Below are positions 3,480 through 14,308 of a stretch of DNA of 16,693 nt, piece by piece. Location: the IMG/VR virus record IMGVR_UViG_2563366923_000005; one strand, 5' to 3'. Every line of letters starts with the position of its first letter. Positions within the stretch are counted from its first letter, which is position 1. The stretch is from a virus. Taxonomy: Duplodnaviria; Heunggongvirae; Uroviricota; Caudoviricetes. The notes beneath the pieces were generated by a model, which saw nothing but the letters and a program-made list of their open reading frames with translations, had not been told where the DNA came from and did no database searches. Both the position numbers and the translations under genes were made by a program.

Positions 3480-3513
3480 GGCTTAAGCCCTCCCTTACAA
3501 AGCAACTCCAGCC

Positions 3514-4755
3514 TCATGACGCATCCTCCTTATTCTCAGAACCGGTACTGACCTTCACTTCCTGCTTCCATGCCTGGCTGTATTCGTCGCCCCCTTCACG
3601 CGGCGGCATCCCTTCGCGTTCGCGGGCTTCGTTCGGGTTCATGATCCCGTTCTTGATACCGCGCTCATAAGTTGCGTAACGTTCGGTTGGAGTGGCTCGA
3701 AGAAGATCGGCAGAGTCGAACTCCACCTGATAACGAATTCCGGGTACAGGCGATGCCACCAGCAACGCGGATTTAATCTGCTGCTCAAAGTTCGCCAGCC
3801 ACGGACGCATCGTCATGGTGAGAAATGCGCGGCTCGCCTCACTAAAGTTGCTGTAGGTGCTGTTGCTGTATTCCTGCAGGAAGATGGGGGACACGTTGAA
3901 CATGCGGGCAATGTCTTCAATGGAGAAGCGCCGGGAGGCCAGCCACTCAGCATCCTGATTGCTCATGCCAAGCTGCTTATAGTCCATGCCACCTTCAAGG
4001 ATCGGTGTTTTACCGGCATTTCTGGCACCTTTGTAGCGCTCAAGCGCGTCCAGCGCCTGTTTACCCTTCACACTATCGAGCCATTCAGCAGTAGTGACTA
4101 CGCCCGCCGCCATCATGCCATCTTTCATAATGCTGGCGCCGTGGCGCTGCTGGGCCAGACCTAACCCCAGCGCCTCACGGCAGATGGTGATCGGCGAGCG
4201 CCCCAGAAAACCATCATCGGTCGAGTAACGCAGGTGCAGAATCTCTTCCTGCAGGTAGGTGCGCACTGCCCCGGTAAACGGTTCAGTAACGGTGTATTTG
4301 TACTTATGCTGGCCGATACGCTCAGGAACAACCGCCCCCGGCGCATACGGATGCAGGGATTGCGGCTGGCCGTCACGGCCCCACTGGATCACCGCATAGG
4401 CGTTACCATTCAGCAGGCAATGACGCATCATCGTGCGCTTGAACTGGTAAGGCGTCTGACAGTCGTTCGGTTGCTCGTTAAGGAGAAAATCCACCGGGTG
4501 ATTGCTTAGCCACTCCCGCGCTTCTCGGCCGTTATCGTTGCGCACGCGGTAGAGGTAGCAGGGCATTGTTGCCACTGCCTCGCTGATAACTGATATGGCG
4601 TTCATGACCGCCGGCAGAGATTCCGCAGTACCGGCAGACACATATTCGCCTGATCCGGTATTTGGAATCCCTGCCATCGCCAGAAACTCATCAATCGTCA
4701 TGCTGCGCTGTTCGGATGGCTCAGATTTACGGCCAAAAGGCCAGATATTCCACAT
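3514..4755 (-). CDS. Phage portal protein (HK97 family)
   Basis: 413-aa ORF directly downstream of the protease gene with a 1-nt gap. Size and sequence character are typical of HK97-type portals. Confidence 0.88.
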   Translation of the reverse strand: MWNIWPFGRKSEPSEQRSMTIDEFLAMAGIPNTGSGEYVSAGTAESLPAVMNAISVISEAVATMPCYLYRVRNDNGREAREWLSNHPVDFLLNEQPNDCQTPYQFKRTMMRHCLLNGNAYAVIQWGRDGQPQSLHPYAPGAVVPERIGQHKYKYTVTEPFTGAVRTYLQEEILHLRYSTDDGFLGRSPITICREALGLGLAQQRHGASIMKDGMMAAGVVTTAEWLDSVKGKQALDALERYKGARNAGKTPILEGGMDYKQLGMSNQDAEWLASRRFSIEDIARMFNVSPIFLQEYSNSTYSNFSEASRAFLTMTMRPWLANFEQQIKSALLVASPVPGIRYQVEFDSADLLRATPTERYATYERGIKNGIMNPNEAREREGMPPREGGDEYSQAWKQEVKVSTGSENKEDAS

Positions 4756-6797: not shown

Positions 6798-7310
6798 ATG
6801 GACTTCGATTTTGATGATATGGCATACCCGGATATTTTTTTAATTTCCGGCGAGGAGTTTAAAGGAAGCCGGAACACAGGAAAAAATCAGGTAGATATCC
6901 CGTTTACTGACGAACCGCAAATTGAATTGGGCGATATTCTGATTCAGAAGATTGGAAGCCGTGAGTTAAGCCTTAAAGTTGTCGATCTTTCAATATCAAA
7001 GAATGGAACGCTGAACGTGGGTACAACGCATCCTCACTTACTGACGTTATCCGTAGAGAATCTTTCTTCCAACGCACACAGGACAGCAAAGAGTATGAAT
7101 ACTTTTAATATTGGCTCCGTCAGTGGTGAGCAAGTTCAAATAGGTGAAAGTAATCATATGCTGGTGAATATCAGTATTACTGAACTTGTCGAGAAAGTGG
7201 CTAACTCTGGCGATCCACAGGCTAAATCAATGTTGAAACAGTTACTGGAAAATAGCACCGTTGCCAGTATCGTTGGCGCTGGCGCTTCTGCGCTATTAGG
7301 TCTGCTTTAA
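6798..7310 (+). CDS. Hypothetical protein with C-terminal hydrophobic Gly/Ala-rich tail; accessory gene on the opposite strand
   Basis: 170-aa ORF with GGGGGA 4 nt before the ATG. C-terminus TVASIVGAGASALLGLL looks like a single tail anchor or glycine-zipper segment. About 43% GC in a sampled 60 nt. Only sizeable plus-strand gene inside the island besides the RHH gene. Confidence 0.6.
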   Translation: MDFDFDDMAYPDIFLISGEEFKGSRNTGKNQVDIPFTDEPQIELGDILIQKIGSRELSLKVVDLSISKNGTLNVGTTHPHLLTLSVENLSSNAHRTAKSMNTFNIGSVSGEQVQIGESNHMLVNISITELVEKVANSGDPQAKSMLKQLLENSTVASIVGAGASALLGLL

Positions 7311-7315
7311 AATAT

Positions 7316-7335
7316 GGCCTGGGAAAAACCAGGCC
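7316..7335. terminator. Bidirectional intrinsic terminator between convergent accessory genes
   Basis: GGCCTGG-GAAAAA-CCAGGCC hairpin with TTT downstream on plus and an A-rich stretch upstream. A second 8-bp hairpin GGCTGGAT / ATCCAGCC (7349-7375) spans the stop codon of the minus-strand gene. Confidence 0.6.
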
Positions 7336-7357
7336 TTTAGCTTATATGGCTGGATGA

Positions 7358-7693
7358 TTATTCTTTATCCAGCCCCCACTGATAGAAAGCCCAGCTTGCC
7401 GTTGATTGTGCGCTATGGATAGCGTTCTCAAGGCCAGAGGTTGGGTACGACAAATCAGCCGCCATCCTCTGTAGAAGATCGAGGTAAGCGCTGGCGTCTT
7501 TCGACAACTCTTGCTCCCCTTCTTCCAGCCCAGACTGGTACGATTCCAGATCAAGCTTTTCAGAAGTGACAAACGCACTCAGAGCCAGAAAATCCGTCAC
7601 TGTAATCTCATCTTTATTTGAAAGCTCATCAACGGCGCTGTAGAGAAACTTAAGATCGCTCATATGCCCGTTATCTTTGCCAATCAGTTTCAT
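7358..7693 (-). CDS. Hypothetical acidic protein (accessory / possible interference or immunity function)
   Basis: 111-aa ORF with AGAGGT 6 nt upstream of the ATG at 7691-7693. Acidic and probably helical, with no recognisable catalytic motif. Lies immediately downstream of the iteron origin. Confidence 0.6.
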   Translation of the reverse strand: MKLIGKDNGHMSDLKFLYSAVDELSNKDEITVTDFLALSAFVTSEKLDLESYQSGLEEGEQELSKDASAYLDLLQRMAADLSYPTSGLENAIHSAQSTASWAFYQWGLDKE

Positions 7694-7732
7694 TAATAAC
7701 CTCTTTATTTTTCACGTATATATACAGAACTA

Positions 7733-8011
7733 TGTTGGTTCAGTTAGTTCAGTTGGTTCAATTTGTAAAGATGATTGTTTTATAATGATTATTTCCCGTT
7801 GAGTGAACCAACAAAGCCCCGATTTGAACCAACATTGGGTATTTTCATGTTGGTTCAGTCCATGAGGTTCTAAAATGTTGGTTCAAACTGCCCGTTTGTT
7901 GGTTCAAAACTGCTATTTGTTGGTTCAGTGTTGGTTCATTTTTTGACATTAAACCCATATAAAACAGCCACATGAACATAACCCATAGACACTGAACCAA
8001 CTGAACCAACA
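7733..8011. repeat. Iteron array / replication origin (ori)
   Basis: About 10 copies of TGTTGGTTCA or its reverse complement TGAACCAACA at 7733, 7752, 7804, 7824, 7849, 7876, 7897, 7918, 7929 and 8002, with AT-rich spacers, directly downstream of the replication gene. Confidence 0.8.
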
Positions 8012-8034
8012 TTAATAACCCTCACATGTGTAAT

Positions 8035-10170
8035 TTATTCTTCTCCATCTTCCGCAACCTGGTGAAGCACATAAACGTTGATTTGACGCCCATCAATACG
8101 CGGGGATTTCTGCTGGTATCCACGCCCGCTGGACGGCTCAGAAAGCAAGCCAGCAGCGGCAAGCACGCGGGCAAACTGCCTGGCGTTAAAGCCCTGAGCT
8201 ATCTCCTTCTCAAACGTTGCGGGGAACGTATAGAACACCAGCGGCGAATCATCATGGCTGCTTTTGCGCTTTCGATACCCGGCCAGATCGCGAATCGGCA
8301 TACTGGACGGATCATAGGGCAACGGTGCAAAGCGGCTTAAACCGTAGGCATTCAGGAACGCCTCGCACTGCTCGATGATCTGCTGGTGCTCTTTGTTACC
8401 CGTGCCGAACTCTTTCACCCAGGCGTTAAAGCTATGCTGGATAGCGTCACGGCTGGCCTGTTCACTCCATCCGGTGATTGATGCACCAGTTACCAGCGCG
8501 GCTTCGAGGATTGCAAAGCGTTCGGCCACGCGGTGTACCTGCTCACCGTAATCCGCCGGGATGAGGCCGCGCCAGCGCGTTTGCGCGTCACGCACCGCCT
8601 GTTTAGCCTCCTGCTGGTTAGCCGCCAGCCATTTAACCCACTCACGCCCCGCCGCCCCGTGGTTATCAATCCAGGCTTCTTTCAGTGCGTCAGCATGAGC
8701 CTTGCCGTTTGGCAGACCGTTAAAGGCCGTCGATTTCTCCATAGGGATGTTGAGCAAGCGCACCAGTTGGCCCGCTTTCACTTTCAGCCCACCAGCAGCC
8801 AGGAAGGTTTCAATATCCATTTCCCCGGTGCTGATCGCCACAGTGCGCCAGCGTTTAAGCTCCCGATTGCCGCCCTCTTTGGCTCCCTGCAACTTTCCGG
8901 CACCGTTAAACAGGGTGTAAGCAGACGTGGCAACATCTTTGGCACTGCTGCCCTGTCCTACCTCATCAAGCGGTAACAGGCTGTCGTTATGCGCCTCCGC
9001 TTCGTTTGCTATGCCAAGCGCAGTACCGTACCAGGTAAGCCGCAACGCATCAGGCTCACCCCACAGGCTGCTCGCAATATTGGCGGTAGTGGTCTTACCG
9101 GCGCTCGACTGCTCGAACAAATGGACGCCGAAACCATCAGCACCCACCAGGCCAATAAGCGGCGCGGATAATGCCGCTGCCACGCCCAGCATCATGGACG
9201 GATTGCCCCCGGCCAGACGGGCGACGGAATCCCGCCAGGTGGCAGCAGTACCAGCAATGGCATACCCGGAAGATGCAGCGCTGCGACCGTTAAAGAGAAT
9301 GGGCGTCTCTGGATCACCAATCACTTCACCATCAGGCATGATATATGCGCCATGATGCCAGCCAGTGGTATGGGTGATAATCCATTCCCGATCAGTGCCG
9401 CTTTGCTGCAACCAGTCGGCCAGAATCGCCCGGAAGGTGCTTTTAGTGGTCACATTCACCCCACCAGCTTTAAGTGAGCGCCAGCCGTCGCGCTCACCGA
9501 TATCAGCACAGGGGATCGCCCTGGTAATATCTTCATGGCCACGCGGCGAACGCCAGCGCAAAACAAGATAGCGCTCTGCCCCGTCACTACCGGAGCCGAC
9601 CACCTCAAGAGGCGAGCACAGCCACGTTTCGTTATTGATGATCTCGCCACTATCCTTGTCCACCTTTGGCGTGATCCAGTACAGGCCATCGCTCCGGCTC
9701 TCCACGCGGGGTTTGAGTTCATCGCCCGGTTCAGGCTTTGGCTCCCGTTTTTTTACAGGCAGGTTCACCACAATGCTTTCCCCGCGTTCGGCCTCTTCTT
9801 TGAGACGTGGAAGCCTGCCCGTCCAGTCCTCCTTCGGCTGAGGCTCAAACATGCCATTAAACAGCCTGGCCTCTTTCACATCCGCCAGCGCCAGTTTGGT
9901 TGCGATAGTGCTTATCTGCATTTCGGAAAGTTCGCCAGCGCGGATCACACGAACACTGCGACGGCCGTTATCAACAATGTTTAACCGTTCCAGTTCCGCA
10001 AGTTGCCTTTTACCCAGATAAACAGGCGGTACATCATCCCATGCCCTTTTACCTTCGCTCTCGATCCAGTGCTGCACATGTGAATAGGCATCTTCACCCG
10101 CAAAGATAATCGCCTCTGTAAATTTATCTTTCGGCAGGAATTTAATATTCGGGGCATTCTTCATCTTCAT
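8035..10170 (-). CDS. Replication initiator / primase-helicase (DUF927-type P-loop NTPase)
   Basis: 711 aa with Walker A motif FEQSSAGKTT. Size and position (last gene of the operon, next to the iterons) match satellite or PICI Rep proteins. AAGGTG RBS; start overlaps the upstream gene's stop (ATGA). Confidence 0.85.
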   Translation of the reverse strand: MKMKNAPNIKFLPKDKFTEAIIFAGEDAYSHVQHWIESEGKRAWDDVPPVYLGKRQLAELERLNIVDNGRRSVRVIRAGELSEMQISTIATKLALADVKEARLFNGMFEPQPKEDWTGRLPRLKEEAERGESIVVNLPVKKREPKPEPGDELKPRVESRSDGLYWITPKVDKDSGEIINNETWLCSPLEVVGSGSDGAERYLVLRWRSPRGHEDITRAIPCADIGERDGWRSLKAGGVNVTTKSTFRAILADWLQQSGTDREWIITHTTGWHHGAYIMPDGEVIGDPETPILFNGRSAASSGYAIAGTAATWRDSVARLAGGNPSMMLGVAAALSAPLIGLVGADGFGVHLFEQSSAGKTTTANIASSLWGEPDALRLTWYGTALGIANEAEAHNDSLLPLDEVGQGSSAKDVATSAYTLFNGAGKLQGAKEGGNRELKRWRTVAISTGEMDIETFLAAGGLKVKAGQLVRLLNIPMEKSTAFNGLPNGKAHADALKEAWIDNHGAAGREWVKWLAANQQEAKQAVRDAQTRWRGLIPADYGEQVHRVAERFAILEAALVTGASITGWSEQASRDAIQHSFNAWVKEFGTGNKEHQQIIEQCEAFLNAYGLSRFAPLPYDPSSMPIRDLAGYRKRKSSHDDSPLVFYTFPATFEKEIAQGFNARQFARVLAAAGLLSEPSSGRGYQQKSPRIDGRQINVYVLHQVAEDGEE

Positions 10171-14216: not shown

Positions 14217-14308
14217 AACGCTACCCTCAACGCCCCTAATTAACTTGCGAGCCAGGCGGGTAGGGTTTCCCGCTTTTCGGTTGGCCGACCTAGACTCGCA
14301 AGACCAGT

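Follow-up and report, generated by a model that had tools for sequence, protein, structure and literature searches.

The rep-orf111 intergenic region

The 16,693-bp stretch of DNA analysed here (the window; IMG/VR virus record IMGVR_UViG_2563366923_000005) carries an island of approximately 15 kb, located between fis and yhdJ in the Escherichia coli chromosome, which on its gene content is a phage satellite of the capsid-forming phage-inducible chromosomal island (cf-PICI) type. On the minus strand lies rep (8035-10170), encoding a 711-amino acid (aa) DUF927 protein (Pfam, E=4.7e-50; PHROG 1139) that is the predicted initiator-helicase of the island, followed on the same strand by orf111 (7358-7693), encoding a 111-aa protein (phrog_7232) with the Shine-Dalgarno sequence AAGAGG at 7700-7705. 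The intergenic region separating these genes (7694-8034), which we consider very likely to be the origin region of the island, is 65 % A+T compared with 50 % for the window and contains 12 copies of the iteron GTTGGTTCA, 11 of them exact and one with a single mismatch (GTTAGTTCA). All 12 iterons fall within 277 bp (7734-8010), eight on the plus strand starting at 7734, 7743 (the mismatched copy), 7752, 7849, 7877, 7898, 7919 and 7930, and four on the minus strand at 7804-7812, 7825-7833, 7993-8001 and 8002-8010. The initial annotation had described about 10 copies of a 10-bp iteron in both orientations within 280 bp, placed immediately 3' of the Rep gene and 40 bp from the 111-aa gene. The copy number is somewhat higher than this, while the 10-mer is a fair description, a T preceding nine of the 12 iterons to give TGTTGGTTCA; the first iteron begins 24 bp past the rep stop codon (8035-8037) and the orf111 ATG (7693-7691) lies exactly 40 bp beyond the last.

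Allowing at most one mismatch, GTTGGTTCA occurs 15 times in the window, with 12 of these matches inside 7734-8010. Dinucleotide shuffling of the whole window gave an expectation of 4.03 +/- 2.01 matches and none of 200 shuffles reached 15, while approximately 0.067 matches would be expected in 277 bp (Poisson P of about 1.6e-23). A chance origin of the array was rejected on this clustering, which is far above the shuffle expectation. No second iteron cluster was found in the 16.7-kb window, the other single-mismatch matches (2275, 12773 and 15823) being isolated and chance-like.

Read in the direction of rep transcription the iterons are laid out as >> / 54-bp spacer / <<<<< / >> / 43-bp spacer / <<<. 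The array opens with a rep-proximal tandem doublet on the minus strand (7993-8010) with 9-bp spacing, which is present in every long array among the relatives described below and is a triplet in the short arrays. The doublet is followed by spacer 1 (7939-7992; 54 bp, 67 % A+T), a candidate unwinding element with convergent iterons on its flanks and an A+T fraction of 0.67-0.91 across all relatives. Five iterons of opposite orientation follow on the plus strand (7849-7938) with start-to-start distances from the rep side of 11, 21, 21 and 28 bp; the first three are helically phased, and the 11/21/21 spacing is almost invariant across iteron classes. Two minus-strand iterons 21 bp apart (7804-7833) start a distal mirror-image module, which continues through spacer 2 (7761-7803; 43 bp, 74 % A+T), in which the 3' part ...atctttacaaat is conserved, to a plus-strand tandem triplet with 9-bp spacing (7734-7760) whose middle copy is the mismatched iteron. 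Both spacers are thus bounded by iterons that face each other, and the distal half is a mirror image of the proximal one (I3, an inverted repeat of 22 nucleotides (nt), 95 % complementary). Within the origin region duplex stability is lowest in spacer 2, where a 25-mer has a dG of -24.7 compared with a window mean of -34.2 +/- 3.2. Past the terminal triplet a 40-bp A+T-rich tail extends up to the Shine-Dalgarno sequence and ATG of orf111 and includes, on the minus strand at 7708-7729, a conserved non-iteron AT-rich box (the AT box), TTCTGTATATATACGTGAAAAA, with the family consensus ~TTTTTGYTTATATATAGAGAAAAA.

The region was also searched for other known elements. There was no perfect match to a DnaA box in the origin and just weak single-mismatch matches to integration host factor (IHF) sites, while the absence of GATC sites from these 340 bp is not significant at the GATC density of the window. 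An Rfam scan of the region returned no RNA family. A 55-aa open reading frame (ORF) inside the array (7845-8012, minus strand) was rejected as a gene, being interrupted by stops and indels in two related loci (L002 and L003) and not annotated by the NCBI pipeline PGAP.

Rep is a DUF927 protein related to staphylococcal island helicases

Rep contains the Walker A motif SSAGKTTT (residues 355-362) and the Walker B motif LPLDE (residues 399-403), within which G358, K359, T360, D402 and E403 are invariant in an alignment of 10 sequences (A2). It matches the solved structure of a staphylococcal 'Pathogenicity island protein' (PDB 8tch) with E=1.1e-13 when searched on its own and E=1.9e-24 when searched with a profile of 30 family members. 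With the family profile it also matches Cch, the helicase of the staphylococcal cassette chromosome element SCCmec (PDB 5dgk; E=5e-11), in an alignment that covers most of the length of the protein and reaches the extreme C-terminal tail, and Cch is the top Foldseek match of the Rep model. Cch has been grouped in the DUF927 family together with the Rep of SaPIbov1, one of the Staphylococcus aureus pathogenicity islands (SaPIs) (PMC7581432). The SaPIbov1 Rep is an initiator-helicase that loads itself, and its origin is an array of iterons adjoining the 3' end of the rep gene. SCC elements are however a different type of element, for which no replication origin had previously been identified (PMC7581432). 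Pfam identifies only DUF927 in Rep and no primase domain was recognisable.

The rep segment for residues ~610-711 (8038-8343, minus strand), which includes the tail SGRGYQQKSPRIDGRQINVYVL, is the putative iteron-recognition domain, as suggested by the alignment to the Cch C-terminus and by the divergence of a close relative (L032) described below. Confident modelling was confined to the N-terminal domain (residues 1-130, window 9781-10170; predicted local distance difference test (pLDDT) 80-90). This domain shares 41 % identity with the N-terminal region of the Rep of EcCICFT073, a PICI of E. coli CFT073, and is swapped for a Zn-ribbon and TOPRIM primase in three relatives (L003, L004 and P0084); on these comparisons it is a shuffled module.

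The array is conserved as a footprint among relatives

When one genome of each species was scanned with the Rep alignment, 79 loci were obtained, 66 of them informative, and most of the latter carry 5-12 copies of a single 9-mer in the 450-520 bp after the rep stop codon. The same 12 iterons, in the same order and with diverged spacers, recur in two E. coli elements whose cargo is unrelated to that of the window: L002, which is a classical PICI encoding PerC, and L003, where Rep has a primase N-terminus. Across six loci from E. coli, Pantoea, Citrobacter and Apirhabdus the array stands out as a footprint, with 98.9 % identity in iteron columns as against 59.0 % in other columns. The pattern '>><<<<<>><<<' and its spacing of 9, ~64, 11, 21, 21, variable, 24, 21, 52, 9 and 9 recur with different iteron sequences, and a very similar layout extends as far as Actinobacillus, where Rep is ~38 % identical. 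Many relatives have a short array, '>>><<<', with a spacing of 9, 9, 52, 11 and 21, which is like the rep-proximal module of the window. Directly after such short arrays a different motif, CTGGCTGGTGG or a close variant, is often present (L010, L025, L028, L029, L031, L068 and L070), and the AT box is not found there.

Iteron class tracks the Rep C-terminal tail

A number of iteron variants could be matched to Rep C-terminal tails, including GTTGGTTCA, TGTTGTCTC, GTGGGTTAT, CTTATCCCA and TTTGGACTA as well as others. The tail ...GRGYQRKSPRIDGRQINVYV pairs with iteron GTTGGTTCA, ...GRGYQGRVREDGRQIRVYV with TGTTGTCTC, ...GRHKKKALRKMGGKQHVFYV with GTGGGTTA(T) and ...WQIRTPRLKHLNNARPWTYV with CTTATCCCA. 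The Rep of L032, a locus with iteron AGTGGGTTA, is 94-98 % identical to the window Rep over residues 150-600, 61 % identical over residues 601-660 and 39 % identical over residues 661-711; the break falls at about residue 610, beyond which identity is ~50 % and drops to 20-30 % in the last 30 residues. The Rep cores of L069, L016 and L022 are only 64-76 % identical to that of the window, yet their tail motif and iteron are those of the window. Judged from these alignments iteron class tracks the C-terminal tail of Rep and not its helicase core or N-terminus. The module of tail and iterons has recombination boundaries at either end, as would be expected of a functional unit. The N-terminal domain was rejected as the iteron reader, since L003 combines a primase N-terminus with an identical iteron, and since identity in this domain is unrelated to iteron class.

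Intergenic clusters of short inverted and direct repeats just upstream of a gene are typical of operators as well, and the 21-bp phasing of the iterons would suit cooperative binding, raising the alternative that the array is unrelated to replication and serves as the operator of an island transcription factor such as the AlpA-type helix-turn-helix (HTH) protein, its antirepressor partner or the product of a small upstream ORF. However, Rep is the sole protein common to the approximately 40 loci with GTTGGTTCA arrays; the genes up- and downstream differ between these loci, and homologues of the small neighbouring proteins were present in only 2-4 fetched loci each. In addition iteron class follows the Rep C-terminus, no promoter is predicted, and 12 sites over 277 bp would be excessive for an operator. 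We therefore rejected this explanation as very improbable, and a role of the array in replication under the control of Rep remains the favoured interpretation.

Comparison with known replication origins

SaPI origins have been defined as 6-12 iterons directly after rep that flank an AT-rich centre, with no fewer than two on either side and the two sides oppositely oriented, and SaPI Reps as self-loading initiator-helicases in which a C-terminal winged helix reads the iterons (PMC9371898). The rep-ori segments of SaPIbov1 and SaPI1 were described by Ubeda et al. in 2007 and 2012 (as cited in PMC9371898 and PMC7581432), and Gram-negative PICIs share this organisation, with the rep-ori segment of EcCICFT073 able to drive plasmid replication (Fillol-Salom et al. 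2018, PMC6092414). The window displays every sequence-level feature of a SaPI/PICI rep-ori, namely the position after rep, the number and orientation of the iterons, the AT-rich spacers and a DUF927 Rep. As in SaPIs, short iterons are arranged in two opposed sets around AT-rich DNA directly 3' of the gene for a DUF927 AAA+ protein, a predicted initiator and self-loading helicase with a putative specificity determinant in its C-terminal domain, in a helper-dependent satellite. We conclude that the 277-bp array is very probably the vegetative replication origin, of SaPI/PICI type, of the cf-PICI between fis and yhdJ. The initial annotation had called this a classic satellite ori arrangement, a description supported by the agreement of position, copy number, opposed orientations and AT-rich spacers with the published definition, by the conservation of the array as a footprint and by the co-variation of its sequence with the Rep C-terminus. 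The window differs from SaPI origins in its two mirror-image modules, two AT-rich spacers, regular 9/11/21-bp spacing and additional conserved distal AT box, as well as in the absence of a separate or fused primase and in its Gram-negative host.

EcCICFT073 has a similar island organisation and its rep-ori (L087 7010-7237, E. coli CFT073) is also found after rep, with 9-bp iterons, CTGTCTACC, and inverted tandem doublets (9-bp) at both ends. It differs from the window in its iteron sequence, in being a classical and not a capsid-forming PICI, and in its Rep, which is annotated as a 'DNA primase family protein' and not as DUF927; BLASTP found no significant similarity between the EcCICFT073 and window Reps past the N-terminal ~160 residues. 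The tested EcCICFT073 origin is relevant to a further alternative, that the array is a packaging site (cos/pac) for the island's own machinery of small (TerS) and large (TerL) terminase subunits and HNH protein. Terminase small subunits often bind repeats, and the island encodes a P27-family TerS together with TerL and HNH. In EcCICFT073 however the corresponding position is occupied by the tested origin, and the putative cos sites are reported as separate sequences. Moreover an identical iteron array is found in classical PICIs and other elements without capsid or terminase genes in the fetched locus (L002), and the array is always directly after rep and in the window island more than 5 kb from terS. 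A packaging site is hardly credible in view of these observations and was rejected, in favour of a replication origin.

Iteron plasmids and phage lambda have origins with direct repeats of ~17-22 bp, usually with DnaA boxes, at which a winged-helix Rep or O recruits host DnaB. These origins (pSC101, P1, F, R6K, RK2 and lambda; plasmids reviewed in PMC4980987) resemble the window in having repeated initiator sites by an AT-rich unwinding element and an adjacent initiator gene, but in the window the initiator itself would be the helicase. The window does not have the characteristics of Rep_3/RepA-type iteron plasmids, since its Rep has only DUF927 by Pfam, its repeats are short (9-10 bp) and in both orientations, and it contains no perfect DnaA box. 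The E. coli phage satellite P4 has two separated cis elements, ori and crr, and its alpha protein is a primase-helicase of another family. P4 also relies on a multifunctional replication protein that binds short iterons through its C-terminus; an ori/crr organisation is not seen in the window, where there is a single cluster in 16.7 kb and a DUF927 helicase with no primase domain by Pfam. A comparison with SV40 large T antigen and papillomavirus E1 has been drawn previously (PMC7581432) and extends to the window as an analogy only. These are initiator-helicases acting as two hexamers on oppositely oriented short repeats by AT-rich or easily melted DNA, but their DNA-binding domain is N-terminal and unrelated and they belong to eukaryotic viruses.

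Certain database records are consistent with autonomous replication of the island, without proving it. The same island makes up the database entry for a non-mobilizable 'plasmid' of 15,995 bp from Klebsiella pneumoniae FDAARGOS_1323 (NZ_CP069874.1, L085), a closed circle that is colinear with the window over 15.3 kb, is 97.9 % identical to it in the origin region and has no replication gene besides the DUF927 Rep. A classical PICI with a related TOPRIM and DUF927 Rep has similarly been deposited as a 12,152-bp circle (NZ_CP148430.1, L086).

A number of observations weigh against the origin interpretation or limit its reach. The circular 'plasmid' records could represent excised or packaged DNA and not sustained replication, and the absence of the head-closure gene from the E. 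coli copy means that its packaging module may be impaired and the element perhaps not fully functional. The Rep tail and the iterons are physically adjacent, so that linkage may explain part of their co-variation. Window iterons are 9-10 bp in length whereas those of SaPIs are 5-6 bp. With an A+T content of only 67 % for the proximal spacer and the least stable duplex in the distal one, it is uncertain which of the two would melt. AlphaFold2 gave models of low confidence over the C-terminus both for full-length Rep (mean pLDDT 52, from an alignment of 31 sequences) and for residues 596-711 (mean pLDDT 45, from 67 sequences); the alignments were not deep enough, and the models are too poor to confirm the expected winged helix. 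Lastly, the assignment of origin function to this element rests on sequence comparison.

Proposed mechanism and the roles of the two modules

Following induction and excision of the island, DUF927 Rep would act as initiator and self-loading hexameric helicase, with its C-terminal domain (~residues 610-711) recognising the 9-10-bp iteron (T)GTTGGTTCA. Rep oligomers bound to convergent iterons would melt the A+T-rich spacer between them and then load onto the DNA, which host enzymes would prime and copy. Priming is left to the host in this scheme because Rep has no primase domain, and the SaPI primase is not essential (PMC7581432). That Rep binds, melts and loads at the array, and that the two modules differ in their tasks, is inferred from homology and comparative anatomy. 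The rep-proximal module (~7849-8010), comprising the doublet, the 54-bp spacer and the phased iterons, is the likely core origin, while the distal module (7734-7833) and the AT box (7708-7729) are proposed to be accessory. This assignment was made because the short arrays match the proximal module, the proximal spacer is A+T-rich everywhere and the distal spacer is G+C-rich in one subtype ('>>><<<<<><<<', five of six loci).

Outside the window the AT box is kept in long arrays of several iteron classes, including those of Pasteurellaceae, and is not present in short arrays. It is found directly after the last iteron also in L006-L009, L017, L032, L046, L053 and L078-L080, and a gene with a Shine-Dalgarno sequence begins ~20-35 nt past the box in the window and in five loci (L008, L009, L013, L032 and L054). 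The box might function as a promoter, either activator-dependent or modulated by Rep, as a binding site for a host factor, or as an AT tract facilitating melting. A scan of 7300-8300 for sigma-70 promoters and terminators found none between rep and orf111, and by hand inspection there was no usable -35 element 16-18 bp upstream of the TATATA in the box. A terminator-like bidirectional hairpin of seven pairs, six of them G-C, is located between the convergent genes orf111 and orf170 (7316-7335). As no terminator or promoter is predicted in between, transcription probably reads through from rep into orf111, the last gene of the transcription unit, and ends at this hairpin, which would close the replication transcription unit. 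Among the fetched loci orf111 was present only in the window's element, and on this distribution it is variable cargo and not part of the replicon. That Rep binding influences orf111 expression, as the initial annotation had proposed, is speculation that draws solely on the conserved AT box.

The distal half (7734-7833) and the AT box may alternatively form a Rep-responsive control region, acting as a promoter or roadblock for downstream genes or as 'handcuffing' copy-control iterons, with only the proximal module firing. We hold this to be possible but rather unlikely. It would accommodate the many relatives that have a proximal-type module only and lack the AT box, the positioning of genes shortly past the box, and the G+C-rich distal spacers, which are not obvious unwinding elements; the occurrence of the AT box across iteron classes further means that its recogniser must be something other than the Rep C-terminus. 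The missing sigma-70 promoter and acceptable -35 element argue against such a region, as does the variation of the downstream gene between elements. The distal spacer is moreover the most easily melted DNA here, and the mirrored layout would equally suit a second loading site. A control region of this kind refines the interpretation of the array as a replication origin and does not replace it.

An elaboration that we consider unlikely, on the present comparisons, is that the array is an inverted duplication of a minimal origin module composed of tandem iterons, an AT-rich spacer and helically phased iterons, each copy loading one Rep hexamer with fixed polarity. Two-module origins would then be bidirectional and single-module origins unidirectional, with the AT box a host-factor or RNA polymerase site coupling firing to expression of the downstream cargo. 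If true this would represent a natural, swappable code between initiator tail and iteron, with at least 10 iteron variants having distinct C-terminal tails.

When the literature was searched with the iteron sequences as text strings, only matches to unrelated primers were obtained, and the text of the supplements to Fillol-Salom et al. 2018 does not contain these strings either. The window origin is on present evidence an ordinary, well-preserved example of a known design and not a new kind of system. Its recognition means that an unannotated gap of 340 bp and a gene product labelled 'DUF927 domain-containing protein' can be annotated as a defined, if predicted, rep plus ori replicon of a cf-PICI. 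By-products of the analysis are a conserved two-module architecture and a catalogue of tail/iteron pairs, which together with the break at about Rep residue 610 provides an experimentally tractable specificity map. Such a map could serve studies of origin recognition by self-loading helicases and of the avoidance of cross-talk between co-resident satellites.

The host island and its distribution

A 1.1-kb query spanning the origin (7300-8400) is 100 % identical to E. coli KFu015, and gene content was taken from the annotation of this identical locus together with Pfam matches. The KFu015 island carries genes for an integrase, an HTH protein (AlpA-family in Klebsiella annotation) and an AntA/KilAC antirepressor, an icd-like gene, several small ORFs, the DUF927 gene, orf111 and orf170, and genes for an HK97-type major capsid protein, a prohead protease, a portal protein, a head-tail connector, HNH, TerS (P27 family) and TerL. 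The island therefore combines a length of ~15 kb with int, an alpA-type regulator, rep and its own capsid and packaging genes, and has no tail genes, in agreement with the gene set by which cf-PICIs have been defined (bioRxiv 10.1101/2022.09.08.507074). An Rfam int-alpA RNA (RF02996, 63.6 bits, E=1.9e-11) was identified at 14233-14300 on the minus strand of the window, between the integrase gene and a 313-aa ORF.

Among 5,426 complete E. coli genomes the origin was present nearly full-length at 97 % identity or more in only six. Rep proteins 96-99 % identical to that of the window have been recorded from Salmonella, Klebsiella and Enterobacter. Matches of 97.9 % identity to the origin/rep segment also occur within large plasmids of Klebsiella (180 kb and 692 kb) and in a 106-kb 'Klebsiella phage' record. 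Together with the two small circles, the records concerned are NZ_CP069874.1, NZ_CP148430.1, NZ_MK433207.1, NZ_CP129771.1 and PQ569648.1. The filing of PICIs as small 'plasmids' is a database-labelling issue, while the matches in plasmids hint at integration into plasmids.

The window and the 15,995-bp Klebsiella circle differ at two places in addition. A deletion of ~288 bp at window ~3508-3514 relative to the circle removes the gene for a 'phage head closure protein' between the connector and portal genes. The segment 10812-11881, which contains the small ORFs around the icd-like gene, is mostly unalignable with the otherwise 95-98 % identical Klebsiella copy, apart from a single 87-bp match, which indicates that this block is a replaced cassette.

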